Source of the DNA: a phage
DNA length: 64,000 nt
Reading direction: 5' to 3' (one strand)
Assembly: GCA_024613925.1 (NCBI GenBank)
Contig: GCA_024613925.1_4713.1
Below, in pieces: positions 4,804 through 63,589 of this stretch; the stretch's first letter is position 1; each line of letters opens with the position of its first letter. The notes under the pieces were generated by a model that searched no databases, was not told the DNA's origin, and was given only the letters and a program-made list of their open reading frames with translations. The position numbers were made by a program, and so were the translations under genes.

Positions 4804-6081
4804 CTATTTCGTTTTTGCCGTCAGCGGCTGCGATACCGTAATCTCCACCCGATCGACATCGGTACGTTTAACGATGATAAGGCTACGTTCATCACCGAAT
4901 GGTGCTGCTACCTTACAAGCCTCTTTAAGATTTTCGAGAATCATGCCGTGGGGTTCAAACACCGCAAAACCGGAACTAGCGTCGATTCTTATTAGACTTA
5001 CACGCACATTGTTTACGGTAATGGTGTCATCCGTCTTGAACCCACAGCAGGAGGGTAGACGGAACTGACCATTAACGCAATTAGCTAAGTATGCTTCACC
5101 GCCGAACATTTCTATTAACGTCACCGGTTTAAATGTTTTCTCTGGGAAAGCACTATTAAGGGTATCGTTTCCATTCACGAACCAGATCGTTACTTTATCT
5201 TCGGAATACACCAGCCGGTACGGTTGGGTTGCGGACGCTTGCGCTTTATGCTGGTTAAATAACTTTGATTTTGTCGCAATCGCAGCACGACCTTCGGCGT
5301 CGAAGTACAGAACTTCATATCCGACACATCCGATAAACACGCGACGGTTATTAAGTTCCGGAATTCTGACTAATAATGCTTCACCGTTGTATCCAGTAGG
5401 AACAATACCACGTAGGATGATAGATTCATTGTTCAATACCGAATTTTTCATGGTGATGCTTCGCATTATCGCTGGCGTCACTATTTTATCTTCGACAGGT
5501 TCAAGCTGCTCCGCTGTTACAGTCATGGATCTGTCTTCGTTTTCAACCGACCGATTAAAGACTATTTTATTAAGACAAACAATCGGTAGAATCCGGTCTA
5601 CACACACGGTCTCATCGAAATGTGCAGGAAAGCGAAAAATATACGGAACAAAAACATCAATATCGTCGGTTGCTTTTTCAAGCATATTAGCATATTCAAC
5701 TGCTTTAGAACGACCGTTGAGAAGAATAACCGCATAGATAACACTATCTTCCAACCATGCGCGGGTCGTACGCCCGATAATACGATTGGTGTCTATTTCA
5801 GCGCGCTGAGACTCCGGCGACCACTTTACTGAGTTGACACCATCTACAACCACGTCGGCACCATCATCACACAAACTTCGTATGAACCGACTGACGGTCG
5901 CTGCATCGATCTGAATCCCAGCAACCTCAATTTTCATCAATGGGATAACAAACTCATTATTACCGCACTTCTTTGCTCCGCGAATAATAGGAGTACTCTT
6001 CTTGTTTTCACCCGACCCCCAGATAACTTTAGTCATTTTCTGTTTCCTTCTGAGTTTTGTACTAAGCTCTGACGACATCAT
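4804..6081 (-). CDS. hypothetical protein
   Basis: 425-aa ORF co-oriented and tightly packed between tmk and the RuvC-like gene; no phosphoesterase, ligase or kinase motif recognised. Confidence 0.5.
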   Translation of the reverse strand: MMSSELSTKLRRKQKMTKVIWGSGENKKSTPIIRGAKKCGNNEFVIPLMKIEVAGIQIDAATVSRFIRSLCDDGADVVVDGVNSVKWSPESQRAEIDTNRIIGRTTRAWLEDSVIYAVILLNGRSKAVEYANMLEKATDDIDVFVPYIFRFPAHFDETVCVDRILPIVCLNKIVFNRSVENEDRSMTVTAEQLEPVEDKIVTPAIMRSITMKNSVLNNESIILRGIVPTGYNGEALLVRIPELNNRRVFIGCVGYEVLYFDAEGRAAIATKSKLFNQHKAQASATQPYRLVYSEDKVTIWFVNGNDTLNSAFPEKTFKPVTLIEMFGGEAYLANCVNGQFRLPSCCGFKTDDTITVNNVRVSLIRIDASSGFAVFEPHGMILENLKEACKVAAPFGDERSLIIVKRTDVDRVEITVSQPLTAKTK

Positions 6082-7522: not shown

Positions 7523-10042
7523 TTAAATAATCGTGACGTGTTCGTTATACGTTTCAGGGAGGATGATGTTCGTTTTATCAAGAACCATACACTCGGCTTT
7601 ACGGAATGATGCATGGTTGATCACATAGTGGCTGATGAACCACACTTGGCTTACGCGGTGGCCATCAACCAGACGACGAACAAAATCCATGGCATTAGAT
7701 TGGTGCTGGGGATCAAATGTTGATGCGAATTCATCTAACATCAACGGATAATCCGTGAACCCTTTGTAGTGCATCATCGCGATGATGAACGCGATGTTGA
7801 TAATTTCCTTTTGTCCCTTACTCCCACAAACAATATCTTTTCGCGGTGTCGGATACTTCTCAGTTAAAAGCGGAAAACGATAGTTCAATCCTTGCGCGTC
7901 GATAGCACACGGGAGTATCTGAAGTTGGTATTCCCAAATACTCGCAATGATACCGTTCATGTACTCAACGAACGCGTTGATGGGACCCGCAATTGTTTCG
8001 GCAATCAGTCCGTTAGATGGACTTAACTCATCCAGAACAAGTTGTGCATAACCGAGTTGTTCTTCCACCTCTTTTTGTGTCGTTTCCAGCTGAGCCAGAA
8101 GCTGTTGGTCGGTTTTAGCTTCTTGTAACTGCTGTTCGACATGGCTTATTCGGCGAACCGTATCAGACATCGCGGCACGTAACGATTTCGTGTAGAGGTG
8201 TTGCAAGTACTCTAACCACAGTTGGGTTAACGCTTTATCGCTGTTATCAGAACGCACTTGATCTTCCATAATCGCCGTAATGGTTTCTAGTCTACCTTCC
8301 GTAGCTGTAATGGCTTGTGTTAATCGCTCAACGGTCATTAACAACTCTGTCCTGTTCTTATAAAGCAATTCTCGGCGTTGCTGTAACGGTTCAACATCAA
8401 CCGCTTGTACACGTTCGAGCATGCCTTGAAGATGCTTCCGTTCTTGTTCGGCTTGTGTGTAACGCGCAAGTTTCTCAAACGCAAGCAACCAATCGTTAAT
8501 GATTCCAATGCTGCGGAATCCTAAACCGTTTTTACGTCCTTCTTCCAGCAGATTATCCCACATGGGTTTAATGGCGTAATAATCCTTCGTCCAACGTGTT
8601 AACTGACGATGCTGTTCCATCCAGAGCGTATAGCGCTGAACCTTCTCGCTAAGCTCGGCTAACGATTTCTCTTGTTCTTCAACCCAAGCACGGCCTTTCT
8701 GAATGCGTTGTTCAATACCCGCTTTGCTGGTCTTTTCTGTTTCACCAACATGAAAGCGATAGTTGCATTTTGGACAGCTGGTCTGGGGTTGATGATTCAG
8801 GTGGTCGAGATGCGCTTCCAAATCAGCTAACGCATGTTTCGCGTTACGCAAACGCATTCTTGCCGCCTCTTCCTCCTTGATGTAAGCTTCAGCATCGTAA
8901 ACATGATAGGTGTTGTCGGTATCAATCCATTCTTGGAGTAATTCCGTTAATGGAGCCTGAACTTGCGTGAGCTGTTGTAAACAAACCGCAGCGTCCAGAT
9001 TCATTGTTAAAAGCTCACCTGGATGATCTTGCTGAAGCTGTTCGTCCAAACAAGCAAGGCGGGCTTTAATCTGATCAATATCACCTTCTCCAGACTGTTT
9101 CAACTGGTCAAGGATATTATCGATACCCAACAGCTCATCAACCTGACTTTCGAGTTTTGCATTCGCATTCGCGAGTTGCTCTCTTAGTTCAGCCAGATTC
9201 TGCTGTTCTTGTTGCGATGTTCCTCCTTGGTAACGAACAACTGCACGTAGAAGCTCACGATTAAAATGATGGGCACGTTGTGCGGATTCCAGAAGCTGTC
9301 GTTGATCAACATCGCTATCGAATAACGGCAATCCCATCATCGCTTCGAGTGCTGAGCGTTGCTGCTTTAACTCTGCTTCTAATCCCTGGTGGTCGGTGCC
9401 GGTGTATTTCGCTTCAATGCGCTGTGATGTTTCAACCAACTTATTCAGTGTATGCTCATTCACCGCTTTCAGTGAACGTACTTGTTGCTTAACCACCTGA
9501 AACAACTCAAGCGCATAATCGACGTTAACCGGACATATCTGCGTTAATCGTTCGCGTCGTTTCATCGGACCCATTTCGGTGAACTGGTAAGCTGTTTCGT
9601 AACCTAACAACAAACGAATAGTGTCGTCATTAAGCTCGAAATGTTCCTCGATTAGTTTCCACTGGGCTGGTTGTGTACCACCACCATTCAGGTTCTCGCT
9701 GTCGTTAACGTAGAACTCATGCTTAAACCCTTTTTCTAAACGACTGATAAGACGGTATTGCTTATTACGGTGTTCGCAGCGGTACTCGTAATACCCGTCT
9801 TTATCAAAATCGGCACGCTCAGGAACGGTCGGATACAGCAAAGGCAATAGACTACTCTTACCGGAACCATTACTGCCTAAAATGAGTTGTACGGGATTAT
9901 CTGGCCGGATGACCAGCTCCCGAATCATCCCGGTATCAAAACGATTGAATCCACGTAAGTGGAGATAGGTGCATCGCATGCTATGATAATCCTTCTTCGA
10001 TACCTTCTGAACCCGTGGTTCAGAATGCGAAGCTGAAGCCAT
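7523..10042 (-). CDS. SbcC/Rad50-like SMC-family ATPase
   Basis: N-terminal Walker A LILGSNGSGKSSLL, long coiled-coil region with central CPKC zinc-hook-like CxxC, C-terminal signature-like CGSKGQKE, Walker B LMLDEF and H-loop ISH; likely true start at MRCTYLHLRGF (about 9979). Confidence 0.7.
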   Translation of the reverse strand: MASASHSEPRVQKVSKKDYHSMRCTYLHLRGFNRFDTGMIRELVIRPDNPVQLILGSNGSGKSSLLPLLYPTVPERADFDKDGYYEYRCEHRNKQYRLISRLEKGFKHEFYVNDSENLNGGGTQPAQWKLIEEHFELNDDTIRLLLGYETAYQFTEMGPMKRRERLTQICPVNVDYALELFQVVKQQVRSLKAVNEHTLNKLVETSQRIEAKYTGTDHQGLEAELKQQRSALEAMMGLPLFDSDVDQRQLLESAQRAHHFNRELLRAVVRYQGGTSQQEQQNLAELREQLANANAKLESQVDELLGIDNILDQLKQSGEGDIDQIKARLACLDEQLQQDHPGELLTMNLDAAVCLQQLTQVQAPLTELLQEWIDTDNTYHVYDAEAYIKEEEAARMRLRNAKHALADLEAHLDHLNHQPQTSCPKCNYRFHVGETEKTSKAGIEQRIQKGRAWVEEQEKSLAELSEKVQRYTLWMEQHRQLTRWTKDYYAIKPMWDNLLEEGRKNGLGFRSIGIINDWLLAFEKLARYTQAEQERKHLQGMLERVQAVDVEPLQQRRELLYKNRTELLMTVERLTQAITATEGRLETITAIMEDQVRSDNSDKALTQLWLEYLQHLYTKSLRAAMSDTVRRISHVEQQLQEAKTDQQLLAQLETTQKEVEEQLGYAQLVLDELSPSNGLIAETIAGPINAFVEYMNGIIASIWEYQLQILPCAIDAQGLNYRFPLLTEKYPTPRKDIVCGSKGQKEIINIAFIIAMMHYKGFTDYPLMLDEFASTFDPQHQSNAMDFVRRLVDGHRVSQVWFISHYVINHASFRKAECMVLDKTNIILPETYNEHVTII

Positions 10043-13909: not shown

Positions 13910-14263
13910 TTAAGGTTTAGGTTCCGTTTTGTGTTGTGCGAGTAGTGTGTTGATCTGCTCCCGTTGTTCTTTTAAGCATGCAGGAAGCTGGTCTTCCCGT
14001 ACCGTTCCGATTTCCAACGTGATGTACCAGCGTTGTTCGGAAGCCTGCCATTGAAAACTGCTCTGTAACCGCAGGATGTTAGGATCACGTACCTTGTTTG
14101 CGCTGTAGCGGTTGAACCAATCCAGGTAAGCGGCTTTTCCTTCATCATCGGCAACGTAACGCTGCACGCTGTTCTTGCCTTTGTTCTCGTATCCTGTTGT
14201 ACGTATCATGCGAACGTTTCTCCTGTAACGTGTTGTGGATGGCGTAGCATGGTAGCATCCCAT
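13910..14263 (-). CDS. hypothetical protein (small, early-type cassette)
   Basis: 117-aa ORF; true start probably internal (MIRTTGYENKG) just after the stop of 14206..14988. Confidence 0.4.
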   Translation of the reverse strand: MGCYHATPSTTRYRRNVRMIRTTGYENKGKNSVQRYVADDEGKAAYLDWFNRYSANKVRDPNILRLQSSFQWQASEQRWYITLEIGTVREDQLPACLKEQREQINTLLAQHKTEPKP

Positions 14264-14988
14264 TGTACGATCCGGCTCCGGCTTACCCGCATCATGATGG
14301 ATTCATCGTCAAGCCCTGGTTGTGCAACCGGCAACCAACGTTCGTTAAGCACCTTCGCTTCAACGCGTTTCTTGCGGGGATTGTAACGCACCTCGCTGAC
14401 CCAAGCAAATCCAAGTGGATGCACAACCCGTGGATAATACATGCGAAGCAATTGATGCATCCGATCCGTTGCCTCCAAGCTCGCATCCGCCAGGTAAGGT
14501 TTCACCATGGTAAGCTTTTTGGTGTAATACGTTCCAACGGTATGGTTACGCCAACTTGGCAAGGCATGATCCCCTTCTCTCAGTTTGCTATCCGGGTTCA
14601 TCGGCCAGACCTGCTGTTTACCGGCCAGCATCGCGTACTGCCGATCAACGCAACGAACCTGATCGGCGAACAATGGATCCAGAACATCATCCACCGCACC
14701 CTTATTGCGATAACCGTGATGTACCACCAACCTGCTTGCGCTCATCGATGCGGGATGCTGGCTCTTATGCGCATACAGCCCTCCGTCACCGCGAGCGTCG
14801 TAAAGATAACCGCATGCGCCACGCCATATCACCTTGCCTACGGTTCTCTCGTTTTCAAGCAGCATCGTCGGCCCATCAAGCAAATTGGTGAACCACTGCA
14901 CCTTCACGCATTCCGCTTGGACATGCTCGGGTAATGCCTGATACTCTTTTTGGGTGTATAAGGTATCAAAAATGATTTCATCGTTCAT
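14206..14988 (-). CDS. hypothetical protein (first gene of early-type cassette)
   Basis: 260-aa ORF; promoter-like motif copy B about 85 nt upstream; the fully overlapping plus ORF 14263..14934 looks like its antisense shadow. Confidence 0.5.
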   Translation of the reverse strand: MNDEIIFDTLYTQKEYQALPEHVQAECVKVQWFTNLLDGPTMLLENERTVGKVIWRGACGYLYDARGDGGLYAHKSQHPASMSASRLVVHHGYRNKGAVDDVLDPLFADQVRCVDRQYAMLAGKQQVWPMNPDSKLREGDHALPSWRNHTVGTYYTKKLTMVKPYLADASLEATDRMHQLLRMYYPRVVHPLGFAWVSEVRYNPRKKRVEAKVLNERWLPVAQPGLDDESIMMRVSRSRIVQWDATMLRHPQHVTGETFA

Positions 14989-15062
14989 CTAAAAAGTTCC
15001 TCTGTTTCACGTTAATTAAACAACGTATTGATTTCTGGTAACGATAACATCACTAGGTTTGT

Positions 15063-15090
15063 CATCACTAAGGTAATATAGTCGTGAAAG
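15063..15090 (-). promoter_or_regulatory. conserved promoter-like motif, copy B (minus reading TTTCACGACTATATTACCTTAGTGATGA)
   Basis: near-identical to copies A, C and D; partially duplicated (catcactagg 10 nt upstream); heads the 8-gene cassette. Confidence 0.55.
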
Positions 15091-15546
15091 GATTTGTGTT
15101 ACAGCGAGGGGTTTTGTTGTTTTTAAGAAGGGATGGATTTAGAAGAGGTGTTTCAAGGAAGGTAAACGAGGATAGGTATTTTGATTTAAGTAATTAAGTA
15201 AGATGTTATCTGTATTCGTTAAAAGTGTATTGTCTATCTTAAGTTATGTCTTATTGTTTAATCGTTTAATATTTTTATCTAAATAGGTTTAACTCTATCT
15301 TGTTTGTGTATTTAAATTAATTTAAAAAGCTTATCTTCAAAACAATGGATAACATGTGTTTACTACCTTAACGGTAACACATGTCATCTGTGCATTACAC
15401 TTCGTTACATGCTAGTTAAATCCGGATAACTCAAAAAACATTTGTGATACTCTTCTTCACGTTGTTCATCAGAGTATCTCGTCTATACTCATTGCATTCG
15501 TATACGACATAACCGTTATACGCTAACGCTACGCTTATAGCTTGAT

Positions 15547-15610
15547 AACTCTAAGGATAAAAACATAAACTCGCTTCGCTCGTTTAGTTTTTCTTTTTCT
15601 TAGAGTTATC
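15547..15610. repeat. 12-bp perfect inverted repeat (GATAACTCTAAG / CTTAGAGTTATC) separated by about 40 nt
   Basis: read directly; the spacer holds a smaller TAAAC/GTTTA hairpin. Confidence 0.6.
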
Positions 15611-15777
15611 CTGTTGCTCGTCTCTAAAGGACTTCGCTCCTCCCCCGTCCCCCGAAGGGGCCGAGGTCGTGGAAATTTTACTTTCCAAATACATTTACAA
15701 CATCTGTAAACTTTTACTCCAGGTACTTAATCTTATCATTAGAAATTATAAAAGAGAAGAATAAACACAAACATAAA

Positions 15778-15809
15778 CCTTCCTCCAACCCAACAGGGAA
15801 GGAGGAAGG
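15778..15809 (-). terminator. intrinsic terminator, CCTCC/GGAGG-arm hairpin family
   Basis: ccttcctcc-aacccaacagggaa-ggaggaagg; minus strand continues GGTTTATGTTTGTGTTTATT; 15 nt downstream of the stop of 15824..16723. Confidence 0.7.
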
Positions 15810-15823
15810 GGGATTAATTAAAA

Positions 15824-16723
15824 TTATACGGGAGCGTAAACGTTATAACCGAATACGGCTTTACCGTAGGTGTGAGTACCGTCAGCTAACGACAGCACCA
15901 GCACATTGCCGTACGTAACGTTAACGCCCTTGTCGGTAGACTCGAGGGTATCACCGTTATAGACAAAGGTAGCTGTTTGCAGATTGGCTTTCAGTTCATT
16001 AATGATATCATCACTTACACCAGTCTGTTCTTTGATCAGCGTAGTCAGGTTACCTGCCAGGCTTGCATCGATCTTGGTGTCGTTACTGGTAATAGCTTGT
16101 AAAGCTACAGTGTAGGTGCTGAAGTCTAACGGATAGGTTAACAGACGTGCTGACGTTTTGGTACCATCGCCTTCATCAACGTAGGTTAAGTTACCCAGGT
16201 TGGTAACCTTGATGATGTTAGCCAGATCCAGCGTGGTGTTATAAACTTTAACTTGAACAGAGCCATACCACGCCAACGAATCTTCTTTGGCTTCCAGGGT
16301 GATCGTCTGGATACCATGCTCGTCGAAGGTAACCGGCGTAGTTAACGTTTCGGCTTTGATGTCTTTATCTTTATCCAGGAACTTCTCACCGGAAGGTGTG
16401 ATCATACCGTAGCGTTGAGCTACAAGGTCAACCACGTCACCAATAGTGGTGTTCGCATTAACGTTAACACGTACGGCGATCTTCTGGAACCACTTAGCCA
16501 GATCCAGACGATGGTAGGTAACATCGCGTTCATTGAAGTAAGGGGTACCTTCACCTGGGCTAAGCGTTAAAGTTGCTTCTGGAGCAGAAGGATTCTTTTC
16601 TTTAAGGACGTATTTAAGGTCGGTGTATTTGAAGCTGGCACCAGTATCGGCGTTGAGTTTGTTAATCTCATCAACGATAAGTTGCCATGGTGTTTTTAAA
16701 GTAAGCGATACTTGAGCTGTCAT
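15824..16723 (-). CDS. paralog family A member (P1), probable abundant structural protein
   Basis: 299 aa; shares ordered motifs with 27780..28685, 29602..30453, 30464..31399 and 16766..17407 (Y.HRLDLA, LAWYGSV, C-terminal GNVLVLSLADG). Confidence 0.55.
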   Translation of the reverse strand: MTAQVSLTLKTPWQLIVDEINKLNADTGASFKYTDLKYVLKEKNPSAPEATLTLSPGEGTPYFNERDVTYHRLDLAKWFQKIAVRVNVNANTTIGDVVDLVAQRYGMITPSGEKFLDKDKDIKAETLTTPVTFDEHGIQTITLEAKEDSLAWYGSVQVKVYNTTLDLANIIKVTNLGNLTYVDEGDGTKTSARLLTYPLDFSTYTVALQAITSNDTKIDASLAGNLTTLIKEQTGVSDDIINELKANLQTATFVYNGDTLESTDKGVNVTYGNVLVLSLADGTHTYGKAVFGYNVYAPV

Positions 16724-16765
16724 TTTCTACCTCTATGGTTGTTACATCACTCTCAAAAGATGTAA

Positions 16766-17407
16766 GTGTTTACAGAAATTAATATATTTTATATTAGTGT
16801 GAATAGTATGGAGAACGACTCCGAATCTCCTTTTCGACCATCAAAAATCAGAGGACACATAATCATGGCCTTAGACTTTAACAAAGCAGCGAAATCCCTT
16901 CTGCTTGATCTTATCAACACCAAAGCAACCCGTGCACTGTCCGAAGAAGAACTGCAGTTCGGTACTCCGCAGACGTCTTCCGAACATTCTAAGAACACCG
17001 TTATTCAGCTGGACGCTGCGCCTGAAGCAGCTAACCTGCAGGGTAGTCAGCAGTTCTACTACGATCGTCTGGCTCTGTCCGAAGTTTTCGCTGATGTAAC
17101 CGGCGATGTTACTTTCGAACTGCCGCACGGTACCGACAGCATCCAGGCTTCTGAACTGGTAAGCAAGCTAGTCACCAAATTCGGCCTGGCTTCCCTGACC
17201 GGTGAAATCCAGGAAGAAACCTTCCAGCTGTCTGCAGGTACTGTTGGTCAGGTAACCCTGACTGCGATCGAGGGTGGCATGGTATATACCGGCACTCTGC
17301 AGGTTGCACTGACCTATGCAGCAGCACCGAAAGACCAACTGGCAACCGTTCTGGCGGATAACGTAGCTGATGGCTTCGTGAAACCGACCGTTAGCGCTGT
17401 TGGCTAA
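16766..17407 (+). CDS. paralog family A member (P2, short form)
   Basis: FYYDRLALSEVF and MVYTGTLQVAL motifs; likely true start MALDFNKAAK (about 16865), giving about 180 aa; divergent from P1. Confidence 0.5.
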   Translation: MFTEINIFYISVNSMENDSESPFRPSKIRGHIIMALDFNKAAKSLLLDLINTKATRALSEEELQFGTPQTSSEHSKNTVIQLDAAPEAANLQGSQQFYYDRLALSEVFADVTGDVTFELPHGTDSIQASELVSKLVTKFGLASLTGEIQEETFQLSAGTVGQVTLTAIEGGMVYTGTLQVALTYAAAPKDQLATVLADNVADGFVKPTVSAVG

Positions 17408-18463: not shown

Positions 18464-20512
18464 TTAAATACCCTTGGTTCCTTTCACGTGATGTGCGATT
18501 TCTTCAACCATTGCACGCAGAGCACGAAGCTGTTGGTCGTGTTCGTACCAACCGCCTAACAGAACCCCGCTATACACCATGGTGTCAAGACTTAACAGCC
18601 CTTTATCTGATACGTTGATCATTTCAGGGAACTGTTCTTGAACACGCTGTGCAATAACACCGATCTTCTCGACATCAGGATCGTAGTTGTGACGGAAACG
18701 GGCAAGCCCACTGCGTGCCATTTCACGTAAACGATCGCTAAGAGATTCTGGATGATCTTTCAGATAACGGATGTCATGTTTACTACGCTCGTCTGAACGG
18801 ATGTAAGCGTTAGGGACATCGATGTTGCTGTTGAAGTACAGCGCGCTACCACCACCTGCAGAGTTCCCCCAATAGAAGCGAGTGATCTCACCGCCACCAT
18901 TCTCCGTGATGATAACATGTTTACCTAAACGCGTACCACCATTACCATCAACGAAGACCAGTTTGTTTCCGCTGTAAGAACCCCAGAACAAGCGCGTATC
19001 GATGATGTGCGTTGCAGCGAGACGGGCGTTACGTGGTGTAGAATACACGGTGTTAACATCTTGCTGAGCATGTGCATCGGAAGCGATACCATAGTTCTGT
19101 ACGTTACCCAACCCAACCTGCGCTTTCGTAACAGCGTGAGGGTTGTCTCGACGGTTAGCGTGAGCGTTAACCAGATCGCCCGCTAATTTCTGAATTGCCC
19201 AGTTGGTAGACTGCGGTGTCATGTAACGGTTAGTTGCAGAACCACCTTGCGCTTCAGCTTGGTTAGCGGTTGGATAGTTCTCAACACTTCCTAACCCTAC
19301 TTGTGCTTTAGACACTTGGTGTGGGTTATTCTTGTCAGCGATGTGTGCATTAAGCGGAACTAACGCAAAGGTCTCAATGGACGCTTTGGTTGTGTTCGGT
19401 GCCATTAATCGGTTAGCTGCAACCCCGGCACGCGCTTCTTCTTCAGAAGCCATCGGATAGTCTTGCACATTCCCTAATCCCACCTGGGCTTTCGTTACCC
19501 TGTGTGGGTTGTTATAATCGGCTTTGTGTGCATTAAGTGGAATCAATGCGAACTGTTCAATTGCTGCAACGGTACGTAGCGGTGTCATGAAACGGTTGTT
19601 CGCTGTTCCGGCTTTCGCCTCGTCATCCGAAGCAGTCGGGAAGTTATCAACGTTCCCAAGGTTAACCTGCGCTTTGGTGACGCTATGCGGGTTATCCCGA
19701 CGGTTAGCGTGCGCATCGACTAGATCGCCCGCCAGTTTAGCAATCGCCCATCCAACCGTTTGTGCGGTCATGTAACGGTCAGGTGCGGTACCGGCTTCTG
19801 CCTCCGCCTTGTTGGCGGTAGGATAGTTCTGTACGTTACCTAGTCCGACTTGGGCTTTTGTTACTTCGTGCGGGTTATCGGTACGGTTAGCATGCGCGTA
19901 ATGCAGATCGGTCAGATCTTTATCCGCTGCTTGCATATCTTTGCGTAGCTGATCGATTGCCGCCCAGAGACGGTTATCGGATGCAGCATCACCGATAAGT
20001 ATTGCGGCTTTCAGTGAATAGATCGCTAAGCAAAGATGTTCGGTACCGTAAATAGCACTAACGTGGTGGATGTGTGGTTCAGGCGGATAAAGTTCCGGTT
20101 TGTTCTTGATGTCATCCCAGTTGATCGGACGATCGTCAAGTTTGAGTTCTTCGATAGCCTGATATAACGCGTCAATAAGGCTTACGTAAACGCCACCGAT
20201 GATGCGATAGTCGTTAACTAACGTCCCCTCGATATCATCGTTGATAATGGCGATCGCCGCACAGATTTCTTTACCCGCGTAAAGCGTTGCATCCTGATAC
20301 AAGAAAATGGGTTTATAATCCACGCCTCGTACCAGTGTCTTACCGGTAAGCTTTTCAGTGATGACCAGACTTTCGGTGAAGAACGGTCCGCCATCGAGGG
20401 CGTAACATTTATTCTCGGTTCGTGGAACGGTGTGCTCTTCACCAACGATGTGGTTGCTATCGAGCGTGCCGGTCCAGTCCTCGGGGTACTTCAGGGTAAT
20501 TGGTGTTGACAT
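18464..20512 (-). CDS. tail fibre protein with about 61-aa repeats and C-terminal S74-type intramolecular chaperone domain
   Basis: five repeats of N-P-H-x-V-T-K-A-Q-V-(G/N)-L-G-N-V-x-N-(Y/F); C-terminal S-D-E-R-S-K (Ser-Lys dyad pattern of auto-cleaving fibre chaperones) and GVLLGGWYEHDQQLRAL. Confidence 0.7.
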   Translation of the reverse strand: MSTPITLKYPEDWTGTLDSNHIVGEEHTVPRTENKCYALDGGPFFTESLVITEKLTGKTLVRGVDYKPIFLYQDATLYAGKEICAAIAIINDDIEGTLVNDYRIIGGVYVSLIDALYQAIEELKLDDRPINWDDIKNKPELYPPEPHIHHVSAIYGTEHLCLAIYSLKAAILIGDAASDNRLWAAIDQLRKDMQAADKDLTDLHYAHANRTDNPHEVTKAQVGLGNVQNYPTANKAEAEAGTAPDRYMTAQTVGWAIAKLAGDLVDAHANRRDNPHSVTKAQVNLGNVDNFPTASDDEAKAGTANNRFMTPLRTVAAIEQFALIPLNAHKADYNNPHRVTKAQVGLGNVQDYPMASEEEARAGVAANRLMAPNTTKASIETFALVPLNAHIADKNNPHQVSKAQVGLGSVENYPTANQAEAQGGSATNRYMTPQSTNWAIQKLAGDLVNAHANRRDNPHAVTKAQVGLGNVQNYGIASDAHAQQDVNTVYSTPRNARLAATHIIDTRLFWGSYSGNKLVFVDGNGGTRLGKHVIITENGGGEITRFYWGNSAGGGSALYFNSNIDVPNAYIRSDERSKHDIRYLKDHPESLSDRLREMARSGLARFRHNYDPDVEKIGVIAQRVQEQFPEMINVSDKGLLSLDTMVYSGVLLGGWYEHDQQLRALRAMVEEIAHHVKGTKGI
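19010..19900 (-). repeat. in-frame tandem repeat array (5 units of about 185 bp) inside the tail fibre gene
   Basis: recurring ...gtgnggGTTnTc...cggttagcgtg... at DNA level and NPHxVTKAQVGLGNV at protein level; boundaries approximate. Confidence 0.6.
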
Positions 20513-20525
20513 AACCTGGAGGTCC

Positions 20526-23120
20526 TTATAACGTGACTGTACCTAATTTGGTTGTCTTATTGAGATTAATGACAGAGATCTGGGTATCGCTGGTCGTAAT
20601 CGTTCCGATATTAACGCGCTGTCCTTTATCATCCTCTTGCTTATGGATGGTTAACTCCAGCTCTAGCTGGTCACCGTTAGGAACAACGGAAACGTACCAT
20701 GTTTTATTACCTGGTGAGCTATTATAGTTTTTTAGGTTATAATGGCCTTTAGGTAAGGTCATGGCCTTACCGGCAAACAAGCAAGTGATGTCTTCGTTGA
20801 TGTAGATATCGTAACCGGAAGCAGCAACGACCGTAGAAACCATGTAGACATGTTTGACGGTACCTGCGAGGTATTCGGCTACGCTTGGCCCATATGCTCT
20901 GAATACCTGTCCGCCATTGGATAAACGGTACGCTTCCCCAAGGTCAACGTACCCCAGACCCCATACCGGATGGACGTTGTAACGACGTCCGCTGCTGGCC
21001 AAATACTCATAAAGCTCATCTACCGATAACCCAACCCACGCACCACTGGCGTTCTTAGCACCACGGAATTGAAAATCGTTTGCGTTTCCTGGAGTAGCAA
21101 CGCGCACGGACATCGCCCCGGCGATTAACCAGCCATCAGCGCATTTACGATACCCTAATGGTCCCCACGCCCCCAGAGTGTTATCAATGTTATTGATTTG
21201 GTCCCGAGGCGTGTAAGTTACCGTTGTGACGACCCCCGTTACGGTAATGTTCCCTTCCCGAGCGCTAGTCGTTACTTCAGACGTCATGATAGCCGCCTTC
21301 CTGGAGACAGGATCGTACACCGATATGAACATCAAGCAGGGGGCCCCTGTGGACGCTGGAGGAACCACGATAGAGCCGCGTATAACGGAGTATCTCTCAA
21401 GCTTCGGCGACGTGTAGGTATCCCAACAAAGTTTGGCCGCTCTGTCGAGTTCTGCCTGCGTGATGCTTATCGATGCCCCCTTTAAGGCTAACGTATCAGG
21501 GTCGACCTCAACCCTGCTGCTTAATCTCCCTTCCTGTAACCAGCTACCAGTCACTATCGTCTGGTCGTCGCTCATGTGAATTGTCGCGAAACGTTCGCTC
21601 ACTGAACCGCCTACGTGGACGCGACTGGTTGGCGGGAATCCCGTCACATCGACCACGCTGTTCTTATAGCGATAACTCAAATCCCAATCAGTGGTTATTA
21701 ACCGCTTTTCGAAATTGCTCTGACCCCCTGGGATGCGGGATAAGACATAGACCTTGTTCTTCGCCGTGAAGCCAACGAAGCCGTGTGGACCACAGGACCC
21801 AACAACGCGGTCCATGATGTTAATCCAGCCCCCCACCTCGTACGCGGATATTGGGGTGAGTTTCGCAAGTTCGTCGAAGACATTACCAGCGTAGTCACCA
21901 ATGCGATACGATCGAACCATCGGCGAGGCCAGGTTATCATTCACACAGCTGGTAACCAGACCGTCCTCGCGAATGACCATGTTCCCGGTAAGGTTGCCCC
22001 CACCCCATGCCCAGAATCCGTCTTTATAATCACGGTCACGAGTTGACATCGTACAAGGGCCACGAAAGGACACCGAACCATCGGAGTTCACTTGTAATGA
22101 CGGCGTTCCAGCATTGGGACTTAATGTCCATTGCTTCGTATCCAGGTTCAAATCGACGTACCAGATCGTTGTCCCCTGATCGGCGATATTCGCGGTACTG
22201 TTAGTGTACCATGCCGTCGTACAGTAGATTCGCGCAATGTTACCTCTTACAACAGCGTAATTTCTAACACCCGCACGAATAGGGATAAGCGTCGTTAATT
22301 GACTAGGGTACGCTGTATGGTTTAACACTTCCCAGAAAAGAATATGGTCGAGGTTAGTTTTCGTCGTTCCCTCAAAAATCTTTCCACTAAACCCGGTTTC
22401 TTTGGTGAACTGTACAGCCGCACCATTTTTAATGTCCGATAACATACAGGTATGTACATCGAGTCCGTTTTTCCCTTCATGCGCCCACCAGACTAACAGG
22501 TACACTTTGTTTTTGTAGACGAACGTACTACAGCGCGCCATGCTGTCGGTAATACCCTCTACCGACCCGGTACACATGGCGGCGACATGCTTCTCTACGT
22601 TGAATGTGCCGTTAGTCAGAACGATGTATGGCTGTGTGTTCTCGTCGTTTTCGTCCATCGCGACACCCATCATCACACCGTGGTTATGACACCAGACCGA
22701 TTGTGGGATTTTAGGTAGTGCTGTAGGGTTGTACTGGCGACTGGTACCTATGGCGGTATCGAGCAGCCCTTCACCATTGTTTTTACAGATAGCGTAATAC
22801 ACCCCGTTTTTCATGCTGTTGGATGCAGAGCGAAGGATGGAAACACTCCCGTCTGCTTCCTGACAGATTCCGTAGGTACGACGTTCGGTCATGGCTATCG
22901 CGCCATCAGCTGACCCTTCGATGGCGAGAGGGAAGTAACTTTGATCGCCAATTTGTTCGATATCGGTTACGTCAATATCAATGTACTTTTCCATCTCGGT
23001 GTTGAACTCTGCAGTGCTGTACGCGCCGAGATCGCCAGCCTTTAACCCTGTTGGATTGCTTCGACTAGCGATACGTTCGGTAACGCTGGTCACCAGTTCG
23101 CTAAATTTTTTCATTGCCAT
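20526..23120 (-). CDS. large tailspike-like or fibre-associated protein
   Basis: 864-aa ORF embedded between two fibre genes; Gly/Ser/Thr/Asn-rich composition typical of receptor-binding proteins; no specific catalytic motif recognised. Confidence 0.5.
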   Translation of the reverse strand: MAMKKFSELVTSVTERIASRSNPTGLKAGDLGAYSTAEFNTEMEKYIDIDVTDIEQIGDQSYFPLAIEGSADGAIAMTERRTYGICQEADGSVSILRSASNSMKNGVYYAICKNNGEGLLDTAIGTSRQYNPTALPKIPQSVWCHNHGVMMGVAMDENDENTQPYIVLTNGTFNVEKHVAAMCTGSVEGITDSMARCSTFVYKNKVYLLVWWAHEGKNGLDVHTCMLSDIKNGAAVQFTKETGFSGKIFEGTTKTNLDHILFWEVLNHTAYPSQLTTLIPIRAGVRNYAVVRGNIARIYCTTAWYTNSTANIADQGTTIWYVDLNLDTKQWTLSPNAGTPSLQVNSDGSVSFRGPCTMSTRDRDYKDGFWAWGGGNLTGNMVIREDGLVTSCVNDNLASPMVRSYRIGDYAGNVFDELAKLTPISAYEVGGWINIMDRVVGSCGPHGFVGFTAKNKVYVLSRIPGGQSNFEKRLITTDWDLSYRYKNSVVDVTGFPPTSRVHVGGSVSERFATIHMSDDQTIVTGSWLQEGRLSSRVEVDPDTLALKGASISITQAELDRAAKLCWDTYTSPKLERYSVIRGSIVVPPASTGAPCLMFISVYDPVSRKAAIMTSEVTTSAREGNITVTGVVTTVTYTPRDQINNIDNTLGAWGPLGYRKCADGWLIAGAMSVRVATPGNANDFQFRGAKNASGAWVGLSVDELYEYLASSGRRYNVHPVWGLGYVDLGEAYRLSNGGQVFRAYGPSVAEYLAGTVKHVYMVSTVVAASGYDIYINEDITCLFAGKAMTLPKGHYNLKNYNSSPGNKTWYVSVVPNGDQLELELTIHKQEDDKGQRVNIGTITTSDTQISVINLNKTTKLGTVTL

Positions 23121-27738: not shown

Positions 27739-27770
27739 CCCTCCTCCAACCCAACAGGGAAGGAGGAGGG
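27739..27770. terminator. CCTCC/GGAGG-arm hairpin between convergent genes (probably bidirectional terminator)
   Basis: ccctcctcc-aacccaacagggaa-ggaggaggg; convergent gene ends at 27728 (plus) and 27780 (minus). Confidence 0.6.
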
Positions 27771-45651: not shown

Positions 45652-45800
45652 TGAAAGTATCCTTTACAGAATTAACTTATATAAGTCGGTCGATAGACCA
45701 TAGCGTACACGCGTGCATGCGCCACTATAGTATCAGTAAACACTTACCGTTATTGAGGTCGTGATACAACACTAAAAATGCCGCATAACTTTTCCCTACG

Positions 45801-48096: not shown

Positions 48097-48128
48097 CCCT
48101 CCTCCAACCCGTAAGGGAAGGAGGAGGG
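48097..48128. terminator. CCTCC/GGAGG-arm hairpin between convergent genes (probably bidirectional terminator)
   Basis: ccctcctcc-aacccgtaagggaa-ggaggaggg with A9 tract upstream. Confidence 0.6.
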
Positions 48129-49519: not shown

Positions 49520-49834
49520 CGTATTTTACCTTTCTATGTTAGGTGGGTTGCGGATAGAAGAATCAATGCATAGATTGATCGTTCTTTGTTAGAAATTATT
49601 GCCGAACCGGTTATGGTTATATGGTTGGTAGTACGCCATAGGCTCCGGTTTAGGGATTTCCATGGTCGGATTTTTGGAATTGATTGCCATCACGTAAATT
49701 GTTACGGGCGATACCGCGTGATTCATTTCGACGGCCACACGGTTGTTTGATCGATTGTTCAACTGGTACTGATTACGATTGGTTGATAACAGTAGAGCTA
49801 CTGCCTAAAACTCTACCGTTGTTTAGATACCGTA

Positions 49835-50695
49835 TTAGGATATACGGTGCATCGTCGGTGCGATTGGTCGTTGACCAAGGTAGAATGTATATCTCGGACG
49901 ATTTTTCGGTGCCTGGTTCGGTTGAGGATTCTTCGAATCGATAGCTAACACGTAGTACTGAAGTGTGGGGTTGAGTGTCGTCAGATAGTTTCTGATGAAC
50001 TCCTCGTTTAAACTTTCAGTCGGGGTTAGTATGTGCCCGTTGATTGTAACGACGGTACCATCGGAACGTATTTCACGAACAATGCACCAAGCCCCCGCAC
50101 CAACATCGGTAGGAATAGTCGTGCTGGGAGTAATGGTTAGATATTTATCGAAGAATTCGCAACAAAGAGGATGCATGTAGACCGTTACGGTATCATCTCC
50201 TGGCGAGGTTCTCTCTTTTGTTACAGGATCCTTCGTCGGTACAAATGTGTTAATTTTGGCTACCTTATCAGCATCTTCGTTCGCTTCGATATAAATCTCT
50301 GCTTTACCATGTACGCTCTGAGCTATACGACGTAACTGTTCGTATGTTTTCGGTGAGGTTAGCTGTACCCGACTGAGCAGCTCATCGTACCAAGCTTCGA
50401 AGGTGCTTGTTGGTATCTTAACGTATGCCTTATTTCCGGTTTCATTTTCATCCCGGAAGATAATCGCAACGGTATCAGGCTCATCAAGAGAATCCAGGTA
50501 AACAATGTGTTCGACCAACGCAGAAAACGTTTTACGTCCGGTTCCTCCATAGTACGGGTTTGCTGAATGAACCAGCCGCCAGTTACATGAAGTTTGGATA
50601 TGATCGAAGGCGTTGATCATGTTTTTACTGTAACGAAAAATTTCAGTAAAATATTCTTTACGTTCTTTACTAAGACGTTTGTATATCTTGGTCAT
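49835..50695 (-). CDS. paralog family B member
   Basis: 286 aa; C-terminal half (YMHPLCCEFFDKYLTI ... GAGAWCIVREIRSDGTVVTINGH ... LNEEFI) matches 50749..51549. Confidence 0.5.
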   Translation of the reverse strand: MTKIYKRLSKERKEYFTEIFRYSKNMINAFDHIQTSCNWRLVHSANPYYGGTGRKTFSALVEHIVYLDSLDEPDTVAIIFRDENETGNKAYVKIPTSTFEAWYDELLSRVQLTSPKTYEQLRRIAQSVHGKAEIYIEANEDADKVAKINTFVPTKDPVTKERTSPGDDTVTVYMHPLCCEFFDKYLTITPSTTIPTDVGAGAWCIVREIRSDGTVVTINGHILTPTESLNEEFIRNYLTTLNPTLQYYVLAIDSKNPQPNQAPKNRPRYTFYLGQRPIAPTMHRIS

Positions 50696-50748
50696 TTTTG
50701 TAGCTCCTTGATTAAAGTAAGGATGGATACGATTATTTATTATCGCTT

Positions 50749-51549
50749 TTAGTTTTTACCATTCCCCCAGCAGGGTTCTTCGTAAAAATGGTGCGGATAG
50801 CGATAATGAGAATTATTGGGTCTTCCTGTCGTTTCTTTCTGTGAGTCGACGACTAACGCGTAAAATAATTGGTGCTTGTCCATCATCGAAAAGTAAGAGG
50901 CAAGCAGTTTTTCGTTTAACGCGTCGCATGGTCGACAGGTACGACCACAAAGCGTTACGATACGGCCGTCAGGATAAACTTCACGGATCGTTCGCCATTC
51001 ACCGATACCAACCGGCGATGGTGCTGATGTGCCGCCCGCTATCGTTAAATATCGGTCGTACGTAGTACGGCATTCGGGATGAACGTAAATTGGCTGGGTA
51101 TTAGTACTGTCGTTTTCGGTTTGATGTTTACTCACGTATACCTCAAGGTAGATCGTTGGTAATCCGATTAGAACGCCGGTATCACGACGTTTTTTGGTAA
51201 TCCGAGGACGGATACTATCGAGCACGCTTTCCAGTTTTTCTGCGACTTCGTCAGCCGGTAATATATACCAGTATTGTGGTTCTGGGTCATCACCATGACT
51301 GAATAAGATACGACAGTCGGTGCTATTATTTTCTTCTACTTCAGGCGGGAAGATGATGGTGTGAACCGTATGACGTTCTGCGATATAAAATCCTTCGGGT
51401 CCCTCAGTTTTGGTAAGTGTAAAGGACCAGGGTGAACAATCTTCAGGTGATAAGCCTGCTAGGAAAAAGTTCGTCCGGATTGGCGCGTCCCATTTCGTGA
51501 TCATGTTAGCGTGACCAATAACACCTAACTTTTGATAAATATCTGTCAT
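50749..51549 (-). CDS. paralog family B member
   Basis: start set at ATG of MTDIYQKLGV (51549) because the track ORF (to 51675) runs through promoter copy D and into the terminator hairpin; YVHPECRTTYDRYLTI ... GIGEWRTIREVYPDGRIVTLCG ... LNEKLL. Confidence 0.5.
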   Translation of the reverse strand: MTDIYQKLGVIGHANMITKWDAPIRTNFFLAGLSPEDCSPWSFTLTKTEGPEGFYIAERHTVHTIIFPPEVEENNSTDCRILFSHGDDPEPQYWYILPADEVAEKLESVLDSIRPRITKKRRDTGVLIGLPTIYLEVYVSKHQTENDSTNTQPIYVHPECRTTYDRYLTIAGGTSAPSPVGIGEWRTIREVYPDGRIVTLCGRTCRPCDALNEKLLASYFSMMDKHQLFYALVVDSQKETTGRPNNSHYRYPHHFYEEPCWGNGKN

Positions 51550-51604
51550 GATTGTATCCTCGATTATTAAGAGAAATTTACAATGATAACAGTAACCGCT
51601 GTTA

Positions 51605-51629
51605 TCACCTAGGTAATGTAGTCGTGAAA
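51605..51629 (-). promoter_or_regulatory. conserved promoter-like motif, copy D (minus reading TTTCACGACTACATTACCTAGGTGA)
   Basis: near-identical to copies A, B and C; about 64 nt upstream of the ATG at 51549. Confidence 0.5.
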
Positions 51630-51664
51630 TAAACTGGGGTAATGCGAAATAAGACAGCATAGAA

Positions 51665-51696
51665 CCCTCTCCCAACCCGTAAGGGAAGGGAGAGGG
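51665..51696 (-). terminator. intrinsic terminator, CCTCC/GGAGG-arm hairpin family
   Basis: ccctctccc-aacccgtaagggaa-gggagaggg; 6 nt after the stop of 51703..52434; minus strand continues TTCTATGCTGTCTTATTTCG. Confidence 0.65.
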
Positions 51697-51702
51697 AATA
51701 TA

Positions 51703-52434
51703 TCACCAATGATCGAAGGAACCAGGAGTGTTACGAACGATCTCAACTTGGAAGGTTATTGGTACTGATGGCAATGAAACATATTCGCGTTGCGATAGCG
51801 GGACGTTGTCTTCTCGCTCATCGATGCGAGCAGAACCTGTCAGAAATTGGAACATAGCGACTTGAAGCTCATCGGTGAAACGGAGGTACTCACCGATGTG
51901 TGGTGTTGCATCATATCGAATAAGTACGTTGCCAAACCGTCGTGCGATATTTGGAGTATCTGTGAACGAAACAGGGAAATCCAAAGTCATTCCCATCGTT
52001 TCACCTGGCTTCATTTTCCGAATCGACGCAATTGGCACGTCGAAGATATTCCATTCTTCTTTCATCGTGTCTGGAAACACACCGCGATACAAGATGGTCT
52101 TTTGATGACGATGAACGGGTTGTAAACGGTCAACCAATATTTTCAAAGGTTTAAGTTCTTCAGCCAATTCATAATCTGCTTGGATGTTCCACTTTGCCGC
52201 AAGTTCCATTAGGTTGGGATACGCGCTATATTTATTGACGATAGCCCAGTTAACATTACGCAAATCAATAGGAAGGAATTTGATAATTTCCTTGTTGAAT
52301 ATCCATTGGTTTAATTTCTTAATCTCCGAAAGCATGATGTACTCACTACAGCTAAACGGTTGGACGAACGGTGTTGTCTTTTTCTGGTGCAAGCCATAAC
52401 GTGACCGTACCATGGCATGTCCACTGTGGTTCAC
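51703..52434 (-). CDS. hypothetical protein
   Basis: 243-aa ORF; true start probably internal (MLSEIKKLNQ, about 52335), which removes the overlap with the upstream gene. Confidence 0.45.
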   Translation of the reverse strand: MNHSGHAMVRSRYGLHQKKTTPFVQPFSCSEYIMLSEIKKLNQWIFNKEIIKFLPIDLRNVNWAIVNKYSAYPNLMELAAKWNIQADYELAEELKPLKILVDRLQPVHRHQKTILYRGVFPDTMKEEWNIFDVPIASIRKMKPGETMGMTLDFPVSFTDTPNIARRFGNVLIRYDATPHIGEYLRFTDELQVAMFQFLTGSARIDEREDNVPLSQREYVSLPSVPITFQVEIVRNTPGSFDHW

Positions 52435-63557: not shown

Positions 63558-63589
63558 CCTTCCTCCAACCCAACAGGGAAGGAGGAAGG
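63558..63589 (-). terminator. intrinsic terminator, CCTCC/GGAGG-arm hairpin family
   Basis: ccttcctcc-aacccaacagggaa-ggaggaagg, identical to the copy at 15778..15809; 11 nt after the stop of 63600..63923; minus strand continues GGTTTTATGG. Confidence 0.65.

Follow-up and report, generated by a model that had tools for sequence, protein, structure and literature searches.

Introduction

The genomes of phages in the family Chimalliviridae are transcribed by the phages' own polymerases. Two members, phiKZ and 201phi2-1, have been found by ONT-cappable-seq to make short structured RNAs from intergenic regions and 5' untranslated regions (5' UTRs), to which no function has been assigned and one of which is conserved across genera by position (PMC10914365, PMC11512511). 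Here we describe a non-coding gap in a 64,000-nucleotide (nt) stretch of phage DNA (contig GCA_024613925.1_4713.1 of GenBank assembly GCA_024613925.1; hereafter the window), which can be assigned to a Goslar-like, nucleus-forming jumbo phage of Escherichia coli within the Chimalliviridae. The gap contains an ultra-conserved core of ~279 nt (15439-15717, minus strand), delimited by comparative alignment and folding, which we are inclined, though not strongly, to regard as a new structured non-coding RNA gene that is transcribed from the minus strand and restricted to this clade.

The RNAs of phiKZ and 201phi2-1 provide the closest parallel. They come from the same phage family and are discrete structured transcripts, located in non-coding gaps and bounded by a phage promoter and terminator. 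They differ from the candidate described here in size, since it would measure ~250-350 nt as opposed to 71 and 141 nt for the phiKZ examples and <250 nt for the 201phi2-1 set. They also show no sequence similarity to the core, and our candidate is known from sequence alone. Further differences are that the candidate is far more conserved than its neighbour genes, that it adjoins the most AT-rich tract of the genome, and that it is restricted to the Goslar-like clade and one distant lineage.

Replication origins are a second point of comparison. Transcript-primed origins such as ColE1 RNA II, the T7 primary origin and T4 oriF/oriG share with this locus a layout, putative here, in which a promoter is followed by a structured RNA and then by an easily melted AT-rich region, and replication of the related phage Goslar has been reported to be RNase H-dependent (PMC13648698). 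In contrast to those origins, an initiation site and an RNA-DNA hybrid at our locus are hypothetical, there is no GC-skew signal, and the distant homolog of the core is followed by a terminator and not by an AT-rich tract. Iteron origins, for example lambda ori and P4 ori, likewise present a cluster of repeats in the same orientation, in or beside AT-rich DNA, at one locus per genome. Here, however, only 7-8 nt are conserved per repeat, the spacing varies from 4 to 100 nt, close relatives differ in copy number (3 to 7), and the vicinity holds no recognisable initiator gene. A literature search found no replication origin described for any member of the Chimalliviridae. The two ends of the gap, on the other hand, match known elements, the early promoter of this family and the phiKZ-type terminator, almost base for base (PMC7058600; PMC10914365).

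The gap and its conserved core

The window matches Escherichia phage vB_EcoM_Goslar (Goslar; NC_048170), in which the gene order is identical and identity is ~96% overall and 91% near the gap. No open reading frame (ORF) of at least 40 amino acids (aa) is present on either strand between 14989 and 15823, and this 835-nt interval is the longest ORF-free stretch of the window, the next being at most 334 nt. A first-pass annotation, made from the letters of the window without database searches, had described it as such and as more AT-rich than its surroundings. The latter is also borne out, as positions 15001-15500 have the lowest GC content (0.312) among the 500-nt bins of the window, where the next-lowest value is 0.406. 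The Goslar counterpart lies between gp021 (hypothetical) and gp022 (virion structural protein) and carries no annotation. The minus strand is the coding strand of the homologs of both genes, and the gap is therefore best read on that strand, where it runs from the stop codon of gp022 (15824) to the start codon of gp021 (14988). Four kinds of sequence make up the gap, and strong selection acts on only one of them. The terminator and early promoter at its two ends are ordinary element types that account for ~70 of the 835 nt; the earlier suggestion of a regulatory hub applies to them in a trivial sense and in no further one.

We collected and aligned the gap from 17 Goslar-like genomes, the window included, in which gp022 identity ranges from 95% down to 77%, and nucleotide diversity was computed across 15 genomes. 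The diversity of the core is 0.021, as opposed to 0.18 for the whole of gp022, whose first, second and third codon positions have values of 0.13, 0.09 and 0.31. The constraint on the core is thus ~4 times that on second codon positions of gp022, and even the lowest-diversity 279-nt window inside that gene has a value of 0.14. The variable tract downstream of the core has a diversity of 0.19. The pyrimidine- and AT-rich leader that connects the terminator to the core (15718-15761) is moderately conserved, with a diversity of 0.17 and with indels, and at the other edge the core is followed by a U-tract (15433-15438; T6 in the window, T5-T9 in relatives) that may represent a 3' end. In a 13-kb alignment of four genomes the core ranks first among 370-nt windows (0.992 versus 0.946) and contains the longest invariant run, 299 nt, the second-longest being 98 nt. 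Conservation in a pairwise comparison with only Goslar was dropped as evidence because both genomes are recombination mosaics with many tracts of perfect identity, up to 569 nt in length, and it was replaced by the comparisons of 4, 14 and 15 genomes.

No second copy of the core was found in any genome. Rfam 15 gave no match at the gathering score across the whole 64-kb window, and at E values up to 10 the sole match between 14900 and 15900 was the TrxA thermometer (E = 7.3), located over the gp021 leader; no tRNA or tmRNA was found. Beyond Goslar, nothing similar to the region was found in E. coli genomes, in plasmids or in other phages, and when viral, metagenome and genome collections were scanned for exact and degenerate DNA matches, the core was detected in Goslar-like contigs only. 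A literature search found no paper describing the element, and a search for antisense targets returned only 11-12-nt matches, which is the level expected by chance.

The module to which the core belongs is not an obligatory part of its surroundings. In the relative L010 (gp022 50% identical) the early promoter lies within ~30 nt of the terminator, and the same compact arrangement of terminator followed by early promoter is found at the Goslar promoter at 86,713. The ~700 nt between the two elements therefore form a separate inserted module that neither of them needs.

The core is non-coding. Its only ORF is an intact, ATG-initiated frame of 36 aa (15584-15694, minus strand) that lacks a Shine-Dalgarno sequence and shows no codon periodicity. 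This ORF has three segregating sites in 111 nt, whereas approximately three-quarters of gp022 third positions vary, and conservation of the core extends ~170 nt past it. The first-pass annotation had named a conserved small coding gene as one observation that would speak against its non-coding call; the comparison of genomes revealed none.

Predicted fold of the core

Both strands of the core fold better than shuffled controls, and the minus strand is ~20 kcal/mol more stable than the plus strand (-96.6 versus -76.2 kcal/mol). The consensus fold comprises 11 helices, and 99.8% of cells are paired in it, as opposed to 35-52% for slid registers. Three predicted hairpins stand out, all on the minus strand. 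A GC-rich two-part hairpin (15643-15666) is closed by a C(UUCG)G tetraloop and corresponds to the CCCCC-GAA-GGGG hairpin that the first-pass annotation had correctly placed near 15650. A long imperfect hairpin of ~25 bp with a GCGAAGC cap (15544-15610), found as inverted repeat I2 and forming helices 6-7 of the consensus fold, is invariant. The third (15481-15508) has a covarying tip consisting of the pairs 15497/15491 and 15496/15492. In an alignment of seven sequences the tip pairs occur as U-A in three and C-G in four, and as A-U in four, G-C in two and G-U in one; this pattern was confirmed with 10 variants, and its covariation score was reached by 3 of 500 shuffles.

A strand test of substitutions at paired positions was carried out with the 10 core variants. 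In 10 of 10 variants such substitutions retain a standard pair on the minus strand, and several of them turn into A-C mismatches on the plus strand. In the GC-rich hairpin a swap between CCUCG and CUCCG, facing CGGGG, remains paired through G-U on the minus strand only. Three core pairs other than the covarying two vary by G-U wobble alone, so that pairing is kept on the minus strand while A-C mismatches arise on the plus strand. The other variable sites are located in loops or junctions, with the exception of one terminal-pair deletion and one change of U-A to A-A that breaks a pair. The predicted fold of the core RNA is supported, not proven, by these data, and the controls are modest. Single-sequence folding also suggested a long-range helix that joins the leader to 15446-15465, but it proved unsupported, as the leader of L011 and L013 is different.

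A promoter-type motif and a distant homolog

A pattern scan identified a promoter-type motif, GTAAAAGTTTACAGA, at the 5' edge of the core on the minus strand (15703-15717). It is partly palindromic (GTAAA-nn-TTTAC), and the strict pattern GTAA[AG][AT]GTTTAC[AT]G has five sites in Goslar, all of them intergenic, where ~0 would be expected, and three exact sites in the window. In Goslar three sites are in sense orientation at distances of 104 nt from gp023, 96 nt from gp041 (major head protein) and 200 nt from the nuclear-shell gene chmA, upstream of the gene in each case; the chmA site is ~110 nt upstream of the chmA early promoter, and the fifth site is in the gap between gp244 and gp243. The partly palindromic form GTAARWGTTTACWGA, of 14-15 nt, is confined to intergenic DNA, at 16762-16775 (+) and 45734-45747 (-) in the window and at 16758 (+), 45757 (-), 173098 (-) and 176758 (+) in Goslar. 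Downstream of the gp023 and gp041 copies, in Goslar and the window alike, a TATG is positioned with its G at exactly +49 although the spacer sequence differs; the G of the TATG is at +32 at chmA and at +34 in the distant relative L025. The combination of GTAARWGTTTACWGA with TATG at +49 suggests a late promoter or activator-site architecture in this phage. GTAAAAGTTTACAGA heads the core in every genome, including L025. It can be read as a promoter or activator site, and the core would thus be a minus-strand transcription unit of its own.

The fifth Goslar site merits a separate comment. It is located in a low-GC gap of 298 nt (Goslar 176468-176765; L028 6468-6765) between the DNA polymerase gene gp244 and gp243, where the motif is on the plus strand and directed antisense into gp243, and this gap may contain an antisense or non-coding transcription unit.

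L025, in which gp022 is 55% identical, encodes an extra ORF of 149 aa after gp022. It has no homolog in either the window or Goslar, and a search of the protein database returned only the ORF itself. A core-like element starts exactly at its stop codon and matches the 5' half of the core. A narrow Goslar-clade profile search misses this element, and its homology was therefore shown by a shuffle-controlled local alignment of ~145 nt, which scores 58 as compared with 23.6 +/- 3.5 for shuffles (0 of 1000 reach it) and a maximum of 34 for real-sequence controls (n=272). The two-part GC hairpin has the same architecture in L025 when folded independently, with compensated changes from C-G to G-C and from U-G to U-A. 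Counts from MAFFT and RNAalifold that included L025 were left out, as this hairpin was mis-registered by one base. The L025 element ends at a strong phiKZ-type terminator (-31.5 kcal/mol) in the same direction as gp022. Beyond the terminator lie ~500 nt of other non-coding DNA (2265-2780) of ordinary composition, in which a gene caller predicts only a 32-aa minus-strand ORF, followed by the next early promoter; no AT-rich repeat tract follows the core homolog. The L025 element supports function maintained over deep divergence, transcription on the proposed strand and a discrete 3' end.

The AT-rich tract

Downstream of the core on the minus strand is an AT-rich, indel-prone tract (15203-15342) containing one-way AAGATAA[A/C] repeats, which read as TATCT on the plus strand. 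The claim of at least five TATCT direct repeats is upheld by five same-strand copies between 15207 and 15332 (at 15207, 15235, 15276, 15296 and 15332; P = 5e-5 from a composition-matched shuffle), and no other 140-nt stretch in the 64 kb has five. AAGATAA repeats are present in 17 of 17 genomes, in 3-7 copies and on the minus strand only, with a spacing of 4-100 nt (20-41 nt in the window). In Goslar the only AGATAA cluster of the genome is located here, where the minus strand has 6 copies per 250 nt and the plus strand never more than 2, and the tract is the lowest-GC window of the 237-kb genome at 150, 300 and 500 nt (0.227, 0.277 and 0.298, respectively, with a genome mean of 0.465). The GC content of the tract stays constant at 0.27-0.32 in the 17 genomes while its sequence and length vary freely.

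The first-pass annotation had called the repeats iteron-like. They do form a genuine one-way array that is unique in the genome, but they lack the size and spacing of iterons (at least three direct repeats of ~17-22 bp, helically phased), with a 7-8-nt core and irregular spacing. A tandem-repeat finder reported only TTAAGTAA x2 in the region. The AT-rich unwinding region that adjoins the repeats of an iteron origin would be provided by the tract itself. Products of the nearby genes gp021 to gp015 have no match in Pfam or PHROG, so that an unrecognised initiator is possible among them. Matches to the DnaA box and other host-factor motifs were poor, as judged by eye only, and cumulative GC skew in Goslar peaks at 140, is lowest at 215,114 and has no feature at 15 kb, although this is a weak test because skew largely follows gene orientation. 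Neither an AT-rich nor a repeat tract is a general feature of early promoters, as the other five early promoters lack one.

The comparison with relatives that the first-pass annotation had recommended places the features it emphasised in the least conserved part of the gap. Within the variable tract 283 of 356 alignment columns hold gaps, and conservation of the AAGATAA copies does not significantly exceed that of the sequence around them (0.76 versus 0.69, P = 0.2). The AACATGTGTT inverted repeat it had reported is present in the window, with 13-nt arms (15348-15360 and 15376-15388) that are 92% complementary, and forms part of an optional cassette (15337-15420, minus strand) that is missing from three relatives (L005, L018 and L019). 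On the minus strand this cassette would form a hairpin of -19.9 kcal/mol (z -3.9) with a U-rich tail, CCAUUGUUUUG. A second optional hairpin cassette is found in five genomes only. The tract is unusual; it may be an element selected for its composition (an unwinding region, for instance, or an array of protein-binding sites) or a tolerated spacer that is prone to duplication.

Ends of the gap and neighbouring genes

At the upstream end of the gap is a phiKZ-type intrinsic terminator of gp022 (15762-15809, minus strand), identified from its fold and the published consensus. Its hairpin (15778-15809; -24.5 kcal/mol, z -6.2) starts 14 nt past the gp022 stop codon and is followed by TTTATGTTTGTGTTTATT. 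The tail on the minus strand, TTTATGTTTGT, fits the phiKZ terminator consensus, in which a hairpin is followed by TTATKYYGT (...GGBYTTATKYYGT) (PMC10914365). Identical or near-identical copies of the hairpin are found at 27739 and 63558. More generally, nearly identical 32-nt terminator hairpins occur at several operon ends (15778-15809, 27739-27770 and 63558-63589, and also near 48100), and this reuse indicates that the terminator acts as a repeated sequence module. The TATG after the gp022 terminator (G at 15772) is also compatible with the late promoter or start-site motif of phiKZ, T(-3)ATG(+1) (PMC7598289). We nevertheless downgraded the TTTATG past the terminator as evidence of a promoter, since TTAT(K) belongs to the published phiKZ terminator consensus (PMC10914365).

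The downstream end carries the element that the first-pass annotation had termed promoter copy B (15066-15089, minus strand). It reads TTTCACGACTATATTACCTTAGTG and matches the consensus of virion-RNA-polymerase early promoters. The motif GTAATATAGTCGTGAAA at 15073-15089 has three copies in the window at up to three mismatches, as compared with 0.31 expected, all of them just upstream of minus-strand gene starts, and in Goslar the strict form occurs six times, always on the minus strand. Published early virion-RNA-polymerase promoters are TATATTAC in phiKZ and WTTTRARR_BTATATTACDWHDGTG in 201phi2-1 (PMC7058600). TTTCACGACTATATTACCTTAGTG has the features of this class, namely the AT-rich core TATATTAC, a TTTCA-type element upstream of it and a GTG element downstream (PMC7058600). 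It is present in all relatives and has a diversity of 0.085. Both the promoter copy and the partial duplication attributed to it (15049-15059 versus 15063-15074) are present; the promoter, however, is predicted to point out of the gap on the minus strand, into gp021 and the orphan small genes. Host sigma-70 promoters and generic terminators occur at the numbers expected from shuffles. Upstream of the promoter lies a pyrimidine-rich block (15090-15202) with near-neutral diversity (0.18) and insertions of 10-27 nt in some genomes. Downstream of it is the gp021 5' UTR (14989-15065), with a ribosome-binding site predicted from the conserved AACGTGAAACAGAGGAACTTTTTAGATG immediately before the start codon. 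In L005 (about 7640-7720), L014 and L017 there is a duplication of the early-promoter region that includes a short hairpin, such as TTACCTTCATGATGCCATGCATCATGAACGCGACGCGTAAGCGTTACCTTCATGATG; these duplications resemble the mobile promoter-stem-loop cassettes of T4-type phages.

The gp022 homolog that flanks the gap upstream (15824-16723, minus strand) encodes a virion structural protein with the domain DUF7941, as assigned from the ORF list, the Goslar annotation and 72 homologs with PF25613. The gp021 homolog on the other side (14206-14988, minus strand; from the ORF list) is hypervariable and is the first in a run of orphan small genes. In L011, L013, L022 and L024 the gap leads into another gene instead, of 250 aa. 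Alignment to Goslar at the DNA level fails for 14556-14899, which is the part encoding the C-terminus of the gp021 homolog, and also for 5515-6081 and 20847-22780. The hypervariable early-gene region thus directly adjoins the ultra-conserved core. Elsewhere in the window, a segment of ~2.7 kb (49622-52352) is almost without a Goslar counterpart, as only 157 nt align; two minus-strand ORFs, of ~286 and ~308 aa, lie within it, and the early promoter occurs there in an additional copy (51613-51629). The homolog of gp025, a virion structural protein with a Peptidase_S74 match, includes two segments of ~215 nt (19115-19329 and 19665-19878) that are 72-73% identical to each other, which indicates an internal repeat in a fibre-like protein.

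Discussion

Of the roles proposed for the gap by the first-pass annotation, that of a structured non-coding RNA is the best supported, although it applies to 15439-15717, where only one small hairpin had been flagged. At this core we observe conservation, single copy number, a strand bias of substitutions, limited covariation, a promoter-type motif and a distant homolog with its own terminator; from these we infer the production of an RNA, the positions of its two ends and its mode of action. Read along the minus strand, the phiKZ-type terminator would close the late gp022 transcript, and 15439-15717 would then constitute an independent transcription unit giving rise to a highly structured non-coding RNA. 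This unit would be headed by GTAAAAGTTTACAGA, which it has in common with gp041, gp023 and chmA, and the RNA would probably start 30-50 nt downstream of the motif and fold into ~8-10 hairpins, including the GC hairpin capped by C(UUCG)G and the long hairpin capped by GCGAAGC. Its 3' end would be formed either by the U-tract (15433-15438) or by the optional hairpin (15348-15388) and its U-rich tail, these being the only candidates in Goslar-type genomes; a strong terminator is seen in L025. The fast-evolving, compositionally extreme tract with its one-way AAGATAA repeats would follow, and finally the early promoter at which the virion RNA polymerase would drive the gp021 operon. The core RNA most likely acts bound to protein, as a scaffold or decoy, and not as a short-seed antisense regulator, because its loops as well as its stems are almost invariant.

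Several observations weigh against an RNA gene. Covariation is limited to two pairs in few lineages, and most stems are invariant and hence uninformative on structure; such near-total invariance is itself unusual for an RNA that is constrained by its fold alone. The hairpin that precedes the U-tract (15446-15478) is weak (-10 kcal/mol, z -0.9), so that termination there is tentative, and the hairpin placed first in the model shares sequence with the promoter-type motif and may be outside the RNA. In the Goslar-type core the motif is followed by TATTTG ending at +32 and not by TATG, which the phiKZ non-virion polymerase strictly requires in vitro (PMC7598289). The genomes are recombination mosaics, and L023 is recombinant inside the core. 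The L025 element escapes the narrow profile search, aligns convincingly in its 5' half only, and has a middle part that is not alignable. Finally, an RNA gene alone does not account for the uniqueness of the AT-rich tract in the genome.

This last point has a place in a different explanation, which we regard as possible but rather unlikely, namely a transcript-primed replication origin made up of the core and the AT-rich tract. The core transcript, structured and containing runs of G, would form an RNA-DNA hybrid (R-loop) in the easily melted DNA, from which the RNase H subunit of the phage replicase would make the first primer, and the AAGATAA repeats would serve as binding sites for an initiator or accessory protein. 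The locus is single-copy, and the tract directly past the core is the lowest-GC window of Goslar at three scales, contains its sole AGATAA cluster, in one orientation, and has a GC content that is held constant despite free change of sequence and length, as would be expected of an unwinding element. The promoter-type motif points towards the tract and has no TATG downstream of it. The Goslar replicase needs a catalytically active RNase H (PMC13648698), although this need is equally well explained by removal of Okazaki primers, and an origin has yet to be described in the Chimalliviridae. The genuine repeat array, which might have favoured the origin proposed by the first-pass annotation, is weakened as evidence by its irregular spacing and short core, and the repeats are no better conserved than their surroundings. 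There is no extremum of cumulative GC skew at 15 kb, the neighbour genes are orphans without a recognisable initiator, and L010 lacks the module at the syntenic position. Moreover, the L025 homolog leads to a strong terminator and DNA of ordinary composition where the tract would be expected. For a packaging-related site, also proposed initially, nothing was found in support.

We give little credence to the idea that the core is a functionless recombination boundary, comparable to the boundary sequences of lambdoid phages or the promoter-stem-loop cassettes of T4, kept uniform by repeated homologous exchange between co-infecting relatives, which would shuffle the adjacent hypervariable early-gene cassette. 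The mosaic genomes with their perfect-identity tracts of up to 569 nt, the hypervariable or replaced gp021 region next to the core, and the duplications of early promoter and hairpin in L005, L014 and L017 would all be accommodated, as would L023, which joins variants of two core types and so implies exchange within the core. Conservation nevertheless extends to L025, where the surrounding non-coding DNA is unalignable and hairpin changes are compensated; substitutions in the core respect pairing on the minus strand, no 279-nt window of nearby gp022 approaches its diversity, and the core starts precisely at a regulatory motif that is used elsewhere. It is similarly improbable that the core is a cis-acting leader of the gp021 operon, for example an antiterminator or riboswitch-like element for middle or late read-through of downstream hairpins. 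The core is indeed on the same strand and upstream of that operon, with terminator-like hairpins in between, and mutually exclusive pairings around 15446-15478 and the pyrimidine-rich leader are possible in the model. Against this, the cassettes between core and operon are optional, the operon has its own conserved early promoter, and in L025 a strong canonical terminator intervenes ~590 nt before the next early promoter. A small protein is a scarcely credible source of the conservation. The 36-codon ORF is intact and begins with ATG, but conservation spans the full 279 nt, the few segregating sites in the ORF contrast with the variable third positions of gp022, and, apart from the missing Shine-Dalgarno sequence, a predicted stem encloses the start codon and the encoded peptide is of low complexity.

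Nucleus-forming jumbo phages are intensively studied; their functional non-coding DNA is almost uncharted, and few small RNAs have been reported. The core is an unannotated, single-copy element beside the most AT-rich DNA of the E. coli model phage Goslar. For this phage an RNA-seq time course (5-60 min) exists, reported per annotated gene (bioRxiv 10.1101/2023.09.20.558163), and together with dCas13d knockdown and antisense tools such data are already available to examine the locus. The candidate motif GTAARWGTTTACWGA, with its TATG at +49 before two late structural genes, could help to define the middle and late promoters of Goslar. If true, the origin reading would provide the first known replication origin in this phage family. 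Whether the core specifies a trans-acting RNA or part of an origin is directly testable, and either would add a new functional part to the genome map of Goslar.

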